A DNA stretch of 64,000 nucleotides from Eledone cirrhosa (taxonomy: Eukaryota): contig OZ024740.1 of the NCBI GenBank assembly GCA_964016885.1, positions 175,026,001-175,090,000 on the forward strand, given 5' to 3'. Below, in pieces: positions 3,370-62,916 of this stretch. Made by a program: the position numbers and the translations under genes. The notes under the pieces were generated by a model that was not told the DNA's origin, did no database searches, and was given only the letters and a program-made list of their open reading frames with translations. The first letter of the stretch is position 1; each line of letters opens with the position of its first letter.

Positions 3370-5040
3370 TCATCATCATCATCATCATCAACGTTTAACA
3401 TCCGTGTTCCACGCTTGCATGGGTTTGGACGGGGGTAGTCCCACTTGAGGCAAGAGTGATTGTCTTGCTCGCATAGGACTGTCTGGCAGGTTTTCTACAG
3501 TTGGATGCCCTTCCTAACACCAACCACATTTACAGTGTGGGTCTGGGAGGTTTTTACCGTGTTGCCTACACGGCCACATTACAGCGTGGACTGTGTGTTT
3601 TTTTATCGTGACACCTACACGATCTCATTTGTTTCGGCCTGGATGGTGTGGCACCAACATAACTTTACATAGAAGAGGGTGGTGTGGATGGGGTGGGGGT
3701 GGTGGGACGGGGGTGTATTTTGTTAGAGATGCCTACTGACTGTAGTAGGTTTTACATTGTATTTAGGTAAGGCGGGTCTTCTCTGTTACTGAGTACCGCC
3801 AAAGGTCTCGGTCCAGTGACATTGTCTTGGAGAGGTGTAAGTGTGTGAGGTCGGAGTTTATCAGCTCGTCCCAGGTTTTTCTAGGTCTGCCTATTCTGTG
3901 GCTACCGTCTATCTTTATTGCCCTGCACTTTGTTATACAGCTATCGACTTTCATGCGCATCACGTGACCATACCAACATAGCCTTCTCTCGAGTAAACAA
4001 CATCTGATCCCTCTTATTTCTAATTTTTTCCTTAGTTCGTTTATGCTTTGCCGTTCACGTATATTACTATTACACATCCAGTCTGCGTATATCCTCTGCA
4101 CACAATGCCCAGGTCTCACTGCCATGCAACATTGCTGTTCGTATGCAGGCATCATACAACCTGCCTTTCATTTTTAGGGAGAACCCTTTAGCGGCTAATA
4201 GTGGTATAAGCTCTCTGAACTTTTTCCATCCAGTTCTGACTCTAGCTACTGTACTTTCAGAGCACCCTCCCCCACTGCTGATTTTGTCACCCAGGTAACG
4301 GAAGCTGTCCACTATTTCTATAGAGCCCTCTGCGCAGTTGTAAGAGCTAGTATTTTGTGGGCACTTGCTGCTACTTATTGCACCAGAGCACCGGCCACAT
4401 GTAAAATCTATGTTTTTAGTTAGCTTACCTGTGATCCCACTACATCTTTTATGCACCCATACTTTGCATTTGGGACATAAAATGGAGTTTCTACCTACGC
4501 CTTTCCTACACACTGAGCATGGCCATTTCCCGGAAGGGACCGCCGCCTTATTTTCTTTCCTACAAACTAGAACTTTAGTCTTAGCCAGGTTAATTTTAAG
4601 GCCTTTTGATTCTAGGCCGTGCTTCCATGTTTGGAATTTCTTCTCTAGCTCGGCCATTGATTCAGCTATCAGTGTTAGGTCGTCTGCGTATAGGAGTTCC
4701 CATGGGCAGCCAGTCTTGAACTCCTCTGTTATAGCCTGAAGGGCAATAATAAATAGTAGGGGGCTGAGAACAGAGCCCTGATGGACGCCAACTTTTACGC
4801 TAAACTCTTCACTATATTCGTTGTTAATTCTAACCTTGCTGACTGTTTCTTTATACATGGCTTGTATAGCTCTCACAAGCCATTTGTCGACACCTAGTTT
4901 TCTAAGGGCCCACCAGATAATGAAACAGGGGACTCTGTCGAAAGCTTTCTCCAAGTCGACAAAAGCTAAGTAGAGGGGTTTACCTTTAGCTAGGTACTTC
5001 TCCTGTAGTTGTCGTACAATGAAAAGAGTGTCTGTGGTAC
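3370..5040 (-). mobile_element. 5'-truncated RTE LINE, subfamily A (RT + PHD finger + 3'UTR + (ATG)n tail)
   Basis: ORF 4070-5143 has FVDLEKAFD, GVHQGSVLSP, YADD and SFRYLG. ORF 3763-4155 has WYGHVMR..GRPRKTW. (CAT)n tail at 3370. Confidence 0.95.
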
Positions 5041-5089
5041 TTACTCTTATTAATATTTTTGTGTTGGATATTAACATATTTTTACTAGA

Positions 5090-5162
5090 TAAGAAAAAAG
5101 TATATTCTTGTTTCATTGGCCTTGAAAAGGCATATGACCACATTCCACAAGACCTGCTGTGG
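5090..5162 (+). mobile_element. Short RT fragment of a second RTE family
   Basis: Translates KKVYSCFIGLEKAYDHIPQDLLW (DLEKAYD motif). Confidence 0.6.
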
Positions 5163-5230
5163 ACACCAGGTACACTTTTCCATGTGCTCTATCTTCAGAA
5201 GTAGAGCATATGGAAAAGTGTACCTGGTGT
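5163..5230. repeat. Near-perfect 29-bp hairpin
   Basis: acaccaggtacacttttccatgtgctcta ... tagagcatatggaaaagtgtacctggtgt. Confidence 0.9.
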
Positions 5231-16029: not shown

Positions 16030-19000
16030 TGATGGCTACCTACCTCACAATTTCCCTCACACCACCATAGCCTATTCGACCAATCAAACCTCAGCATGTC
16101 CCCCCCCACCCATTACCAACCCCAACAAACCCTGCCATTTCTACTACTACCTACCTCTCTCCTCTCACTCGTCCAAGCCCCAACACACCCTGCCATTATT
16201 ACCACCACCACTGTTCTTCTAGCCCTGAATTTTCCTACCATTATGTATGGATGAGCTGAGAATAAATGGAGCAACTCCGAATTAATAAATGAAAATGAAT
16301 ATGAATCCGCGAGCGACCAAGCACCCATGTGAAGCTTCAATTCAGAGACAGGAAGCACACGCACACCCCTCAAAAATTGACCCTTCCCCACGAACTTTGA
16401 CAAATGCCCAAAACTCTGAGTTGGTACCATCAATGTAAGCACAATAAAAAGAAGAGCACGAGAAATTGTAGAGATGCTAGAGCGAAAGGAAATAGATGTA
16501 TGCTGTGTGCAAGAGACTAGATGGAGAGGAGAGTCTGCTAGAGTCCTTGTAGGAAAAAGTCAGTGCTACAAATTTTTCTGAGTGGGAAATGACAATGGGA
16601 TGGGTAGTGTAGGTATCCTACTAGCTGACAAGTGAGTAGATAAAGTAATCTCAGTGAACAGGGTGAATGCAAGAATCATTAAACTCAGACAAGTCCTGAA
16701 TAAAACAATTACCACAATAATATCAGCTTACGCACCCCAATCGGGGTTGCCAGACGAAGTTAAGGATAGGTTTTACGAGTCTCTAATGCACACTACTGCT
16801 CTAACAAACAACAATGACTTCCTAATCATTGCAGGAGATTTTAACGGACACATAGGTAAACACTGTGACGGCTTCTATAGAGTCCATGGAAGCCATGGGG
16901 TTGGCACAAAAAATGAATTCTGCGACGCCAATAACATGTCGATATGTAACACAAACTTCAAAAAACCCGAGAACCACCTGATCACCTATAGATCAGGGGA
17001 GCATTCTAGTCAGATAGATTTTATCCTCATCAGAGGACGTGACAGATGGATGGTCGTAAACACAAAAGCCTTCCCTAGTGATGAATGTACCTCCCAACAT
17101 AGCTTAGTTGTCAGCAACCTCACGGTCAGAACTAGATGAACCTGGAAACAGAAGCCAACCTGGAGAAGAAAGATCTGGAAGCTGAAAGACCCCTCAGCCA
17201 GTAACAGATTTAAAGATATTTTACTCAACGCCTACGACAGTAAAGAAGAACAGATAGAGACATTCAATATAGAAGAGCACTGGGAGTTCCTAAAAAATAA
17301 CTTACTAGAGGCGACGGATGAGATCTGTGGCTGAAGTAAGACCACAGGCAGAAGGAGAGTGACTTGGTGGTGGAACAATAAGGTAGATGAATCAGTTAAG
17401 GCCAAGAGACAGGCATGGAAAGAATGGAAGAACGGGGGAAGCAGGGTACATTATATAGAGACCAGGATGGAAGCTAGGCGACAATTATACTTAGCTAGGA
17501 GGGAAGCATAGGATAGAAAATTCAAGTATGCACCACTGATGCCCTCTTCCTTCTGAGGCAATTACAGGAAAAGTACCTAGCTAAAAGTAAGCCACTCTAC
17601 CTGGCATTCATCGATCTCGAGAAAGCCTTTGACAGAGTTCCCAGTGCTATAATCTGGTGGGCTCTTAGAAAACTAGGAGTAGATGAATGGCTTGTGAAAG
17701 CTGTACAAGCCATGTATAGGGGAACAGTCAGCAAAGTTTGGATTAGCAATGAGTATAGCGAGGAATTTAGCGTACAGGTCGGTGCCCACCAGGGCTTTGT
17801 TCTTAGCCCTCTCCTGTTGTTCATAGTCCTGCAGGCAATAACAGAGGAGTTTAAGACCGGATGCCCATGGGAACTCCTGTATGCAGATAACATCGCACTT
17901 ATAGCTGAATCTATGGTAGAACTAGAGAAGAAATTCCAAACTTGGAAGCAGGGACTAGAAAGAAAGGGTCTCAAAGTCAACCTGACAAAGACTAAGGTCC
18001 CTGTAAGTACTCGAGAAAACAGAACCCAGATCCGCTCAGGGAAATGGCCTTGCTCAGTATGTAGGAAAGGTGTAGGTATGAACTCCATTCTCTGCCCCAA
18101 ATGCAAACAATGGGTACACAAGAGATGCAGCGGGATCTCAGGAAGCTTAACTAAGAATGTAGGCTTCACGTGTAGCAGCTGTGCTGGGACAGCAAGCAGC
18201 AAACAGCCACAGGAAACAAGTACCAACAATCTCTGGGAGGGCTCTGTAGAAACAGTAGACAGCTTCTCCTACCTAGGTGACCGAATTCGCAGCAGAGGTG
18301 GGTGTTCAGAAAGTACAATAACTAGGGTAAGAACGGGATGGAAGAAGTTTAGGGAGCTACTTCCACTGCTAGCTGCAAAAGGCTTTTCCCTCAGAATGAA
18401 AGGCAGACTGTATTATACGTGTATATGAACAGCAATGTTACATGGTAGTGAGACCTGGGCACTGAATGTGGAAGACTTGCGTAGATTAGAAAGAAACAAA
18501 GCCTGCATGCTCCGATGGATGTGTAATAGTAATATACGCGAACGGCAAAGCATAAATGAATTGAGAGAGAGACTGAGCATAAGAGGAATCAAATGCTGTG
18601 TGCAGGAGAGGAGGTTGCATTGGTATGGACGTGTGATGCGTATGAAGGATGATAGCTGCATAAAAAGCACTAGAAGTCGATGGAAGCCGCAGAGTGGGGA
18701 GACCCAAGAAGACCTGGGATGAGGTGATAAAGGCCGACCTAACCCAATTACACCACTCAAAGGCGATGATACACAACTGTGACCTCTGGCATCACGCAGA
18801 AATACAGAATACCCGACCCCCACACGGGTACAAGCCGAAGCATATAGACAGTATGCCCCTCCTCCACTGCAAAGTGGTCGTGGAGGTGCCACAGCACAAA
18901 AAAGCACCCAGCCCACACTGTAAAGTGGACGTGTAGGCGCCACGGAAAAAAAGCACCCAGCACTCACTGTAAATGAGGTTGGTGTTAGGAAGGGCATCCA

Positions 19001-37878: not shown

Positions 37879-37989
37879 ATATATATATATATATATATAT
37901 ATGTAGGAGGTGAGTTTTATAGTACAATAAAGCAATGCAGATATCGGATAAGAAGCACTCTACAGTTTGTAGGACTGGAGTATAGATAA

Positions 37990-38234
37990 TATATAAGATC
38001 AAAAGATGGTTAAAAGAGTTCCATGTATTTTATAATGTTTATCCAAAAGCATTTCAAAAACAAATATCATCATGCAATAACATTTGTGTTTTCATCAGAT
38101 AAAATAGGAAGACATATCATGTCTTCCTATTTTATCTGATGAAAACACAAATGTTATTGCATGATGATATCTGTTTTTGAAATGCGCATAATAAAATACA
38201 TGGAACTCTTTTAACCATCTTTTGATCTTATATA
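37990..38234. repeat. Fold-back element, ~120-bp arms, 3-nt loop
   Basis: Arms meet at gacat-atc-atgtc (38111-38123). Confidence 0.95.
38128..38198 (+). ncRNA. Type I minimal hammerhead ribozyme
   Basis: tattttat-CTGATGA-aaaca..tgttttt-GAAA-tgcgca-TA-ataaaata; 8-bp stem I; palindromic stem III. Confidence 0.8.
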
Positions 38235-38237
38235 TAT

Positions 38238-39741: not shown

Positions 39742-39743
<2 letters not shown>

Positions 39744-40315
39744 AAAAAGTATGACCCGACGGCAGAGCTCAAGTCGTTTCGACGGCTATTTCTGGACTAA
39801 ATTAGAATTTTTAGCCTGGTAAATAAATATCCGAACTTGTCAAGGGGTACTTCCTTATATGGGAAGATTGTAGTTGTCAAGAGGATTGGTCAAAATTTGT
39901 TGTAAACACAAATAAGTCTATCATGGCATTTGGTGGGAGGTGTGGGTGGCTGAACTTGCCTGTAGAACATTGAAAGGGTCATAGTGCAATTAGCCTGTAG
40001 AACAATGTTCTACAGGCAAGTTCAGCCACCCCCACCTCCCACCAAATGCCATGACAGTCTTATTTGTGTTTACAACAAATTTTGACCAATCCTCTTGACA
40101 ACTACAATCTTCCCATATAAGGAAATACCCCTTGACAAGTTTGGCTATTTATTTACCAGGCTAAAAATTCTAATTTAGTCCAGAAATAGCCGTCGAAACG
40201 GCTTGAGCTCTGCCGTCGGGGTCATACTTTTTCCAATTCCCACTCTACTATCCTAAGTATTGAGTACTCTGGTGCGTTATCGTCCATCTGGTTCCTTACC
40301 ACATTTCCTTCGTTA
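39742..40315. mobile_element. Fold-back HHR element (~230-bp arms + unpaired 3' tail) in (TA)n
   Basis: Arms 39742-39972 and 40003-40234; tail 40235-40315 shared with 62375-62453. Confidence 0.93.
40127..40222 (+). ncRNA. Type I hammerhead ribozyme, U3:A8 core variant
   Basis: acccc-TTGACAA-g..ggctattt..aaatagcc.tc-GAAA-cggc..gccg-TC-ggggt; all three stems pair. Confidence 0.8.
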
Positions 40316-40343
40316 TATACATATATATATATATATATATATA

Positions 40344-54282: not shown

Positions 54283-57200
54283 TCATCATCACCGTTTTAC
54301 GTCCGTTCTTCCACGCTAGCATGGGTTAGACGGGTTGTCCTATTGTGGGCAGTATCTGGTCGGCTGACCATGCCTTGCTCATACAGGAACTGATTTGGCT
54401 TGATTTCTACAGCTGGATGCCCTTCCTAACACCAACCTCATTTACAGTGAGTGCTGGCTGCTTTTTCGTGGCGCCTACACGTCCACTTTACAGTGTGGGC
54501 TGGGTGCTTTTTTTGTCGTGGAACCTCCACGACCACCTTCCGGTGGGGGGTGTGGGGGCATATTGTCTATATGCTTCAGCTTGTACCCATGGGAGGTCGG
54601 GTACTCTGTATTACTGCGTGACGCCAGAAGTCACGGTCGTGTGTCATTGTCTTTGAGAGGTGTAATTGGGTAAGGTCGGCTTTTATCACCTCATCCCAGG
54701 TCATCTTGGGTCTCCCCACTCCGCGGTTTCCATCAACTTCTAGTGCTCTGCACCTTTTTATGCAGCTGTCATCCTTCATACGCATCACATGTCCATACCA
54801 GCGCAACCGCCTCTCCTGCACACAGCATTTAATTCCTCTTATGCTCAGTCTCTCTCTCAATTCATTTATGCTTTGTCGTTCACGTATATTATTGTTACAC
54901 ATCCATCGGAGCATGCAGGCTTCGTTTCTCTCTAATCTACGTAAGTCTTCCACCTTCAGCGCCCAGGTCTCGCTACCATGCAACATCGCTGTTCGGATAC
55001 ACTCATCATACAGTCTGCCTTTCATTCTGAGGGAGAAGCCTTTTGCAGCTAGCAGTGGTAGTAGTTCCCTAAACTTCTTCCATCCCATTCTTACCCTAGT
55101 TATTGCACTTTCTGAACACCCACCTCCGTTGCTAATTCGGTCACCTAGGTAGCAGAAGCTGTCTACTGTTTCTACAGGGCCCTCCCAGAGATTGGTGGTA
55201 CTTGTTTCCTGTTTGCTGTCTCAGCACAGCTGCTGCATGTGAATCCTACATTCTTAATTAAGCTTCCTGAGATCCCGCTACATCTCTTGTGTACCCATTG
55301 TTTGCATTTGGGGCAGAGAATGGAGTTCCTACCTACACCTTTCCTACATACTGAGCAAGGCCATTTCCCTGAGGGGATCTGGGTTCTGTTTTCTCGTCTA
55401 CTTACAAGGACCTTAGTCTTTGTCATGTTGACTTTGAGACCCTTTCTTTCTAGTCCCTGCTTCCAGGTTTGGAATTTATTCTCTAGTTCTACCATAGATT
55501 CAGCTATGAGCGCGAGGTCATCAGCATACAGGAGTTCCCATGGGCATCCGGTCTTAAACTCCTCTGTTATTGCCTGCAGGACTATGATGAACAGGAGAGG
55601 GCTAAGAACAGAGCCCTGGTGGACCCCAACCTGTACGCTAAATTCCTCGCTATACTCATTGCTAATCCTAACTTTGCTGACTGCTCCCCTATACATGACT
55701 TGTACCGCTTTCACAAACCATTCATCTACTCCTAGTTTTCTAAGAGCCCACCAGATTACAGCATGTGGAACTCTGTCAAAGGCTTTCTCAAGGTCGACAA
55801 ATACCAAGTAGAGTGGCTTACTTTTAGCTAGGTACTTTTCCTGTAATTGCCTCACAAGGAAGAGGGCATCAGTGGTGCCTCTTCCTGGTACAAACCCAAA
55901 TTGCATCTCGTCTATTTTCACCCGGTCCCTAATCAGCTGTGCTATAACTCTTTCTGTTACTTTCATGACCTGGTCCATCAACTTTATACCTCTATAGTTT
56001 CCTCTATCTAGTGCATCGCCTTTACCTTTGTAGCAGTTGACAATGATGCTACTGCACCAATCTTTTGGTATGGCCCCTTCTAGTATTACCTGGTTAACGA
56101 TACGTGTGGTTATAGTGTGACCTACAGACCCAGATGCCTTCAGCATCTCGGCAGCTATACCCGATGGACCGGTTGCCTTCCCCATCTTCATATCTTTGAT
56201 TGCCTTACTTACTACGCTGCCGCTGACTTGTACTGCTGGTCCCTCTATAGGGTCTACTTGGGGTAGGGTCACTTCTTCCCATGCATTCTCCTCATTTAGT
56301 AATCTATCATAATGACTCTTCCATGCATCTTTCTTCTCAGCACTTGTGAGGGCAAGCTCACCTTTAACATTCCGGATACACTTCTCTCCAATGACATCAC
56401 AACTATCTCTGACACACTGCCTCACAATCTTGAATACCTCCTGTTTCTGGTCCTCACGTTGTAAAACATGCTTGAATTTTCTATCCTCTGCTTCCCTCCT
56501 AGCTAAGTATACTTGTCGCCTAGCTTCCCTCTTGGTCTCTATGTAATGTACCCTGCTCCCCCCGTTCTTTCATTCTTTCCATGCCTGTCTCTTGGCCTTG
56601 ACTACTTCATCTACCTTATTGTTCCACCACCAAGTCACTCTCCTCCTGCTTGAGGTCTTACTCCAGCCACAGACCTCATCCGTCGCCTCTAGTAAATTAA
56701 TTTTTAGGAACTCCCAGTTCTCTTCTACATTAAATGTCTATATCTGTTCTTCTTTACTGTCGTAGGCGTTGAGTAAAATATCTTTAAATCTGTTACTGGT
56801 TGAGGGGACTTTCAGCTTCCAGATCTTTCTTCTCCAGGTTGGCCTCTGTTTCCGGGTTCGGCTAGTTCTGACCGTGAGGTCGCTGACAACTAAGCTATGT
56901 TGGGATGTACATTCATCACTAGGGAAGGCTTTTGTGTTTACGACCATCCATCTGTCACGTCCTCTGATGAGGATAAAATCTAACTGACTAGAGTGCTCCC
57001 CTGATCTATAGGTGATCAGGTGGTTGTCGGGTTTTTTAAAGTTTGTGTTACATATCGACATGTCATTGGCGTCGCAGAATTCTAGAAGTCTGAATCCTTC
57101 CTCATTCCTTGTGCCAACCCCATGGCCTCCATGTACTCTATTGAAGCCGTCGCAGTGTTTACCTACGTGTCCGTTAAAATCTCCTGCGATGATTAGGAAG

Positions 57201-57335
57201 TCCTTGTCGTCTGTTAGAGCAGTAGTGTGTATTAGGGACTCGTAAAACCTATCCTTAAATTCGTCTGGCAGCCCCGATTGGGGTGCGTAAGCTGATATTA
57301 TTGTGGTAATTGTTTTATTCAGGACTAGTCTGAGT
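54283..57335 (-). mobile_element. Long RTE LINE, subfamily B (EN partial + RT + PHD + 3'UTR)
   Basis: ORFs 56738-57061, 55172-56425 (NYRGIKL, QFGFVPG, YADD) and 54576-55088; few disruptions. Confidence 0.96.
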
Positions 57336-57608
57336 GTGTGTATATATATGTGTATATATGCATATAAATGTATATATGTATATATTAGAGCTATTTAATT
57401 GTAAGAGACTACTCTGAGTTTCTAACTCACTATATATTTGTCGGCTCCATCATGTTGAGGTAATTTTAAAGTCTTGTTAACCAGGCTGCTATTTTTAGCG
57501 GCATGGGATTTCGAGACAAGCTGGGTTCCGAAGACACGTGCGATAATTCTTATCGCACACAATTCAGTCTTCTAATATATTTAGAAGTGAAAGGATCGCT
57601 AATTTCTC

Positions 57609-57690
57609 AACAACTACTGAGGAGTAGAGAAAAGTGTGGACTTCACTTAATAAGATGTTGCGAAACAGTTTCCAAAACTGTCTAGTTGTT
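57609..57690 (+). ncRNA. Canonical type I hammerhead ribozyme
   Basis: aacaacta-CTGAGGA-gtag..ttgc-GAAA-cagttt(cca)aaactg-TC-tagttgtt; 8-bp stem I, 7-bp stem III, GUC site at 57680-57682. Confidence 0.9.
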
Positions 57691-57959
57691 ACCAGCCTTT
57701 TGCCCAATATAGGTCTGTTATTTTTCTTAATTTACTACTTAAAATTAAGTCTGACAAAGCATATTGCTGTAGTTAGTATTTTTTCACCCTAGCAAACCTA
57801 GTCCTTACGATTCGAACACATGCATGTTTATATTAGTGTTCATCTCTCTTGTTTATTCAATTATATGTATATATATGTGTGTTGAATGTGTGCATAAATC
57901 TACAGATACCCATGGTACATATTTGATACAACTTTATAGTTACTTGATACTCGTGTTAT

Positions 57960-60908: not shown

Positions 60909-61198
60909 TGATGTTTCAGCAAAGTAAGTTGATAGTTTGCTAAACTTTAGGTATGTATGAATATATATATATATCAGATAGGGTGTGGTAAAATACCCAC
61001 CAGAGTACCCGATACTTGGGGTAGTTGAATGGGTAATATGAACAGATTCAGGACCCCGACGGCTGAGCTCTGGTAGTTTTGACAGATCTAGCTGTCGAAA
61101 TGGCCAGAGCTCAGCCGTCGGGGTCCTGAATCTGTTCATATTACTCACTCAACTACCCCAAGTATCGGGTACTCTGGTGGGTATTTTACCACACCCTA

Positions 61199-61259
<61 letters not shown>

Positions 61260-61308
61260 TACATACCTAAAGTTTAGCAAACTATCAACTCACTTTGTTG
61301 AAACATCA
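60909..61308. repeat. Fold-back element centred in HHR stem II, including flanking (TA)n and unique DNA
   Basis: Centre gacag-atctag-ctgtc; arms share gaccccgacggctgagctc with the 39.7-kb and 62.3-kb elements. Confidence 0.95.
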
Positions 61309-62060: not shown

Positions 62061-62269
62061 GGCCAGTTAAGCCTGAAATGCATAGACGGTTGTGCCCCTT
62101 GCTTCTGCTGAATATCACCAGAGGGCGTTAGCACTCCCCCCCCCTGTTTGCATAGCTACAGCTTCCTAAAACCGTATTTCTTTGGAGATACGAAATATTT
62201 ATACATATTGTATAAAGCTATGCTTGAAGCGAAATCCTATTTCTATTATATATATATATATATATATAT

Positions 62270-62453
62270 ATAGGAACCAGTAAGACCCCGACAGCTGAGC
62301 TCAAGCCGTTTCGACGGCTAATTTCGACGTCGAAACGGCTTGAGCTCAGCTGTCGGGGTCTTACTGGTTCCTATTACCCACTCTACTACCTCAAGTATTG
62401 AGTACTTTGGTGCGTTATGGTCCACCTGGTTCCTTACCACATTTCCTTCGTTA
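62270..62453. mobile_element. Short fold-back HHR-family element with 3' tail in (TA)n
   Basis: Arms 62270-62316 and 62328-62374; tail homologous to 40235-40315. Confidence 0.92.
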
Positions 62454-62916
62454 TATATATATATATTTTTTTTTTTGTTACATGTTTCATTTAAAATGCA
62501 TATGTGTAAAGATAAGATTTCTAAGATGTATTAAGAGCTACAAAATAGATAAATTATATTGCTCAATGGTCTTTTTAAAACTCCAGCCATTCCTCTGCAA
62601 AAGCAAACACCATACAATTGACACAATCTTCACTATTTTCTCACCCCTCTGCTACCTTACTCTCTTTCTCCACATACCAACCATGCCCACCCCCGTCTAT
62701 CATGTTTCTTCCCCCTTCTCTTTTTATACACTCTTAAAAAATCTAGTTGTTGAGATGATATTCAGTACTTTCTTCTAAGTTTCACTTGTGTCTTTATTAT
62801 TTTGTTTTGGTGGGGTATTTTTTAAAGTATGTTTTTCATGAATATTTAGTTGTTCTTTATTCACTGAGAGAGAAAATATCAATAAAACATATCTCACTCC
62901 CTCTCTCATATATATA

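Follow-up and report, generated by a model that had tools for sequence, protein, structure and literature searches.

Several structural traits of Penelope-like elements (PLEs) have been described at their insertion sites. Next to the 5' end of the element there is often a second copy, inverted and 5'-truncated, the targets show a TA bias and a tail of 30-40 bp is often present on one end only, while elements of the Hydra and Naiad clades insert into (TA)n (PMC8557442). Head-to-head inverted pseudo-LTRs (pLTRs) with palindromes at their junctions have also been reported (PMC3846280), and the traits described for PLEs include hammerhead ribozymes with U3-A8 cores and a palindromic loop III, as well as pairs of ribozymes that lie 100-700 bp from each other on opposite strands (PMC4209133). 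Work on reverse transcription (RT) in vitro revealed two start sites that bracket the tail, cutting and extension of both target strands and the use of uncleaved RNA as template (PMC11167929). These traits are taught for the curation of repeats (PMC8969392), and the formation of inverted pseudo-LTRs and tails is listed as an open question (PMC8557442). In an octopus, 30 recently active Penelope families were reported (PMC13282606).

The locus analyzed here belongs to a short, high-copy repeat family of Eledone cirrhosa, of which three copies (A, B and C) occur in the window, a stretch of 64,000 nucleotides (contig OZ024740.1, positions 175,026,001 to 175,090,000) whose internal numbering is used below. 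The family very probably corresponds to the end of an endonuclease-bearing PLE (EN+ PLE), and copy A is likely a very short insertion in which two cDNAs of the 3' end of such an element, a pseudo-LTR with hammerhead and tail, are joined head-to-head. A sequence-only reading of the locus had proposed a reproducible integration mechanism at TA microsatellites that yields head-to-head 5'-truncated cDNAs from two defined priming positions. The head-to-head arrangement of 5'-truncated cDNAs, a preference for two 3' ends and the targeting of (TA)n are borne out by the three copies of the window and by sequencing reads, but the proposal had in essence already been published for PLEs (PMC11167929, PMC8557442, PMC3846280). 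The architecture of copy A is an already published PLE signature and not a new integration mechanism.

Copy A (62273-62453) opens with GGAA at 62273, directly after a left (TA)13 tract (62247-62272) which constitutes the target microsatellite, in agreement with the sequence-only reading. The left arm (62273-62325, minus strand) is inverted, 5'-truncated and bears the tail-less end of the element, while the right arm (62328-62371, plus strand) comprises the 3' half of a hammerhead of type I and a further 17 nt up to the internal end. Positions 62273-62316 and 62328-62371 form a perfect inverted repeat of 44 nt with an 11-nt spacer (47 nt if ATA/TAT are counted), and the folding z-score of the copy is -20 against 200 shuffles. 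The last 9 nt of the left arm (62317-62325) are family sequence from the 3' strand of stem II with no counterpart in the right arm, and the junction is marked by the palindrome TTTCGACGTCGAAA (62322-62335), the first 8 nt of which are a direct repeat of 62309-62316. Beyond the inverted repeat, and on the right arm only, an 82-nt 3' tail (62372-62453, plus strand) starts with TATTA and ends with TTA into the right (TA)7 tract (62452-62465). It has no significant fold (z -0.1, within a range of -0.1 to -1.2 for the tails).

The hammerhead parts of copy A were assigned by reading the whole ribozyme in copy B. The right arm contains the end of stem II, GAAA (62332-62335), stem III with a palindromic GAGCTC loop, the GUC site (62352-62354) and the 3' strand of stem I (GGGGT). 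The fold sits in the 3' strand of stem II, and the copy lacks the TTGACAA core, as noted in the sequence-only reading, together with the 5' strands of stems I and II. Since it retains half a ribozyme and no ORF, copy A is dead. The tail-less end lies 17 nt beyond the GUC site in both arms of copy A and in the right arm of copy B, but at 16 nt in copy B's left arm, which has one G fewer; the near-constant spacing put forward earlier was thus confirmed, but at 16-17 instead of 17-18 nt. The right arms of copies A and B are 89.7% identical over 126 nt.

Copy B (39742-40318, plus strand) has the same architecture with arms of about 230 nt, and its tail measures 81 nt, so the claim of an unpaired tail of about 80 nt common to both copies holds. 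A descriptor scan located in it a whole predicted type I hammerhead (40127-40222), with 0 matches in 10 shuffled windows. The predicted fold comprises stem I (ACCCC/GGGGT), the core TTGACAA (40132-40138) with U3-A8 in place of C3-G8, a long G-C-closed stem II with a nested hairpin, GAAA, a 5-bp stem III with the palindromic GAGCTC loop, and the GUC site. Of the hammerhead, copies A and C each retain the 3' half. At the gathering score Rfam returned 0 matches in the 64-kb window; two matches on copy B at E 1.7-7.7 were rejected as chance. The ribozyme is thus recognized by Rfam at no threshold, a point against the PLE reading. Among the 40 of 186 sequence variants listed from the reads, N7, which is unconstrained, has a base other than that of copy B in 67-69% of read depth and hammerhead position 3 is C in 15-22% of read depth, which may reflect a shifted neighbouring C run.

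Copy C (60975-61203), a diverged subfamily member absent from the earlier account, was found by BLAST of the window at 77% identity. It is arranged head-to-head, is folded in stem II and has (TA)n on both sides, and it bears a tail of 65 nt on both arms, which differ by 4 mismatches clustered within the 14 nt closest to the fold. Outside its TA tracts the non-repetitive flank is duplicated in inverted orientation over 52 nt, within 60910-61307 (60910-60961 and 61256-61307, 96% complementary), and this sequence occurs only at these two places of the window. The tail-less left end had been described as fixed; given that both arms of copy C are tailed, it is a preferred and not an invariant feature.

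Evidence from sequencing runs was collected using the right arm of copy B (322 nt) as query at 82% likeness. The run of contigs X1, possibly from the source sample, provided 20,310 matched contigs, whose depth is no measure of copy number, and the raw RAD-seq reads of run X12, which carries the same species label and comes from another study, provided 23,769 matches among 12,467,656 reads; runs X7 and X5, from other organisms, gave 7 and 18 matched contigs. The family accounts for 0.19% of the reads in X12, a reduced-representation run. Among the 21 of 481 loose ends listed, sequences switch into (TA)n at 40234 in 171 contigs of X1 and 1666 reads of X12, a variant ending in TTCC and followed by (TA)n at 40228 occurs in 60 contigs of X1, 1875 reads of X12 and 1 contig of X5, and 906 reads have a variant of the tail end followed by TA, which, with depth holding to 40324, indicates that the tail end also enters TA. 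The tail-less end is general to the family, and this part of the earlier claim stands. Ends recur at (TA)n in both X1 and X12 and are not random termini lacking a TA preference; in the window, TA runs adjoin 6 of the 6 ends of the three copies while making up 1.4% of the sequence.

The fold-back point was proposed to be variable, and it does differ between copies A and B. Read depth, on the other hand, rises 19-fold in X1 and 21-fold in X12 between 40157-67 and 40190-200, and because this climb of about 20-fold across 40160-40195 is found in both runs, most arms end within stem II and the fold-backs are clustered, not freely variable. The depth change may be due in part to subfamily divergence or RAD-seq bias, and the stem II loop differs in X5. 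Opposite-strand joints at 40178/40181-40182, present in 7 contigs of X1 and 24 reads of X12 (among the 15 of 28 joints listed), agree with the fold of copy A. Since the reads repeat both the tail-less end with (TA)n and the joints in stem II, the hairpin of copy A cannot be put down to chance or to faulty assembly. Tail-less ends reach about 0.3 of the depth of the tail start in X12, a biased measure as short arms align poorly, and the core/tail depth ratio is 1.3-1.6 in X1; the lopsided form is common and probably not universal. Upstream of 40006, 896 reads run on, from which it follows that a longer parent element exists.

Both asymmetric copies (A and B) contain a direct repeat and a terminal hairpin at the junction. 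In copy A, TTTCGACG (62309-62316) recurs at 62322-62329, where it is completed to a 14-nt palindrome, and the 9 nt between the repeats are genuine upstream family sequence. In copy B a 12-nt direct repeat (39958-39969 and 39993-40004) is extended into a 25-nt hairpin (39993-40017). The same script detected no palindrome of at least 4 pairs at the junction of copy C. Each arm of an asymmetric copy holds sequence absent from the other, namely 9 nt (A) or 21 nt (B) in the left arm and the tail in the right arm. Within a copy the arms differ at 0, 2 and 4 positions (A, B and C, respectively) versus 5-12 between copies, over 43-45 nt; the arms of one copy share subfamily variants and therefore derive from one RNA or one source locus. 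Judged from the junctions of the asymmetric copies, a syntax of snap-back plus microhomology would favour two cDNAs joined end to end, although that of copy A would also be compatible with a perfect hairpin that later lost 7 nt. A junction pattern of this type is described for snap-back synthesis-dependent joining (SD-MMEJ; PMC5728401), which resembles the present case in the use of microhomology and in a junction insertion that creates a new repeat. A full-text literature search returned no paper that combines Penelope-like elements, snap-back, inverted copies and target-primed reverse transcription.

With EN+ PLEs (Penelope/Poseidon, Neptune, Nematis and Hydra; PMC8557442, PMC3846280) the family shares the head-to-head inverted 5'-truncated copy, the junction palindrome, the tail on one end, a hammerhead near the 3' end, a microsatellite target and no discernible target duplication. 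It differs from them in that both partners are cut to about 50-230 nt, leaving no ORF, in the strong clustering of truncations in stem II, and in a tail of 65-82 nt that exceeds the published 30-40 nt, a point against its assignment to PLEs. Poseidon of Anolis carolinensis (PAc) is similar in its two RT starts bracketing the tail, its AT-rich target, the cutting and extension of both target strands and the uncleaved RNA template (PMC11167929); the start sites of PAc lie in the ORF and are not homologous to the cut DNA, whereas in the present family the two ends are located at TA-like motifs beside (TA)n with no evident ORF, and how the two products are joined was not part of that study. Elements of the Hydra clade are nearly all located in (TA)n and have a hammerhead, and one family has a 5'-truncated inverted copy (PMC8557442). 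The protein of this clade is characterized by RWK/DKT motifs and a CxCX5C linker and has no CCHH. The Hydra ribozymes listed there have CUGA cores, a short stem II and a loop III of 0-3 nt, in contrast to the U3-A8 pair, long stem II and GAGCTC loop found here, and none of those listed, including Hydra-1_oBim, matches the family motif. The Naiad clade does not fit, given that it lacks a canonical hammerhead whereas copy B has a full predicted type I fold; the 3' ends of two octopus Naiads in the supplement of PMC8557442 also differ from the family end. The minimal hammerheads of the Schistosoma PLE Cercyon are comparable in U3-A8 covariation, short stem I, long stem II, palindromic loop III and the opposite-strand ribozyme pairs 100-700 bp apart (PMC4209133), and they differ from those of the family, where stem III has 4-5 pairs, stem II contains a nested hairpin and the sequence is unrelated. 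In LINE-1 twin priming, two target-primed cDNAs that copy different parts of one RNA are joined by microhomology, unlike the two putative cDNAs of the present family, which would copy the same stretch.

These observations can be arranged in a sequence of events. A GIY-YIG nuclease, as expected from PLE biology, would nick both strands of the self-complementary (TA)n target, and each nick would prime reverse transcription of uncleaved element RNA, one cDNA starting at the tail end (…CGT|TA) and the other internally, 17 nt 3' of GUC (…TTCC|TATTA), the positions at which the ends are observed. Both start motifs consist of U/A and could pair over 2-3 bases with a TA primer, and the templates are regarded as uncleaved because the copies run through the GUC site, as is the case in vitro (PMC11167929). 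The two cDNAs would usually halt in the 3' strand of stem II, where the observed truncations cluster. One cDNA end, read on the minus strand, may then snap back and copy 6-11 nt of itself, which would leave the signature present at the junctions; the resulting microhomology (GAAA/TTTC in copy A) would anneal to the end of the slightly longer cDNA, and fill-in would produce the lopsided hairpin. The enzyme, the priming and the repair pathway of this insertion are those that we infer.

Two features fit poorly with a pair of cDNAs: as judged from the sequence, the variants shared by the arms would require one RNA or one source locus for both, and copy C, with both tails and its inverted flank, is not explained by two independent primings. 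Both are accommodated if one cDNA only of the same PLE family is involved, its first strand, primed at the tail end, folding back and being copied as a hairpin, with the second strand resolved at TTCC|TATTA by the element nuclease or by TAT microhomology, or else continuing past the tail into the adjacent DNA, as in copy C. The arms within each copy share all subfamily variants as such a hairpin predicts, and copy C is best explained in this manner, considering the tails on both arms and the inverted 52-nt flank whose divergence is about that of the arms. The tail of PLEs has been attributed to nuclease resolution of an intermediate (PMC8557442) and junction palindromes have been read as self-priming (PMC3846280). 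Even so, a single cDNA, although the main alternative, is regarded as an unlikely origin: the left arms of copies A and B hold upstream sequence without counterpart in the right arm, the direct repeat of copy B is not obtainable from a simple hairpin plus a deletion, and true internal initiation of RT was observed in vitro (PMC11167929).

The remaining explanations depart further from a PLE insertion. A non-autonomous hammerhead repeat (non-LTR retrozyme or SINE-like) with no coding parent, mobilized in trans by a PLE or a LINE, would agree with about 95% of the arms being shorter than 150 nt by depth, with the 130 nt preceding the copy B ribozyme giving no sign of an ORF and with the argument that animal retrozymes are PLE derivatives (10.64898/2026.07.22.740005), yet it appears very improbable, as retrozymes form head-to-tail arrays with at least 2 whole ribozymes (10.64898/2026.07.22.740005) while 3 of the 3 window copies are head-to-head, copies A and C have half ribozymes, the joints listed (15 of 28) include none between the tail end and an upstream start, and the 896 reads continuing upstream of 40006 belong to a longer element. 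The 100% identity of the copy A arms and the presence of TA on both sides of this copy could suggest a MITE flanked by TA, or else a fold-back created artificially during sequencing or assembly. Such an origin can practically be discarded considering that the tail lies outside the inverted repeat in copies A and B, the centre is different in each copy, the arms of B and C are diverged, the same ends and joints appear in independent runs and other organisms, and the hammerhead is conserved; for a Tc1/mariner-type MITE in particular, the tail outside the repeat (A and B) and the non-constant interior argue against it. A head-to-head insertion of two cDNAs copied from the 3' end of an EN+ PLE is the preferred reading.

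In EN+ PLEs, an ORF for a telomerase-like RT and a GIY-YIG nuclease lies upstream of such an end, and pseudo-LTRs surround the ORF in a direct partial tandem. The window contains no full-length copy of the family. A coding parent was searched for within it by a Pfam scan of 109 of its 157 ORFs of at least 72 aa, the other 48, mostly extra frames over LINE repeats, being left out by hand. Among these 109 ORFs there was no GIY-YIG match and no RT + GIY-YIG ORF joined to the tail, which counts against the PLE assignment, and only pieces of AP-endonuclease/RT/PHD LINEs were identified. Outside the window, 20 metagenome loci that match the 19-mer of the sequence-only reading were rejected as chance (GC 0.49-0.74, no TA runs, matches of at most 36 nt), and prokaryote genomes, screened with two patterns, and viral contigs, screened with one, gave 0 matches. 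The family is new within the searches made, and the Octopus vulgaris repeat library of PMC13282606 may already contain it.

Other repeats occur in the same window. A second, unrelated hammerhead family (37989-38235) is arranged head-to-head between short TA runs with symmetric ends and has a whole type I hammerhead per arm (CTGATGA core; 38128-38198 on the plus strand, 38026-38106 on the minus strand), the arms showing a 10-nt difference in stem III. A third, also unrelated type I hammerhead (57609-57690, plus strand) has a CTGAGGA core and an 8-bp stem I and is single-armed, in a stretch of about 480 nt bounded by TA-rich runs (about 57341-57380 and about 57854-57876), beside a LINE fragment. 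With two unrelated hammerhead elements in the window, one of them head-to-head between TA runs, the TA-flanked head-to-head footprint appears to be common. A 21-bp perfect inverted repeat with a 26-nt spacer (5163-5230) exists as a single copy in the window, and no hammerhead was found in it.

Many decayed LINE copies with AP-endonuclease and RT, and with a PHD finger after the RT according to Pfam, are distributed along the window (4073-5188, 16636-18425, 55175-57394 and others); these are presumably RTE-like and seem to have their 3' ends within (GAT)n/(CAT)n runs. A homologue search with the LINE RT gave best matches of 50-64% identity. By identity, the closest named relative of the RT (P0097) is at 81% over 59% of the query on a 1.5-kb contig of a Herbaspirillum sp. 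MAG, which is probably host DNA in the bin.

Tentatively, the thousands of short copies of this family may record the last steps of PLE integration, with RT stalling in stem II and two cDNAs joined by snap-back, while along a minority route, as in copy C, a single snap-back strand would run on and duplicate the host flank in inverted orientation. The junction syntax, the hot spot in stem II, the long tail and the inverted flank of copy C may be of use to PLE specialists, and a short, high-copy family with clean ends allows models with two cDNAs to be separated from those with one by counting junctions. Elements of this kind are also a source of numerous perfect hairpins in the genome of the host, and, if true, snap-back joining would account for inverted pseudo-LTRs with no need for an antisense template.
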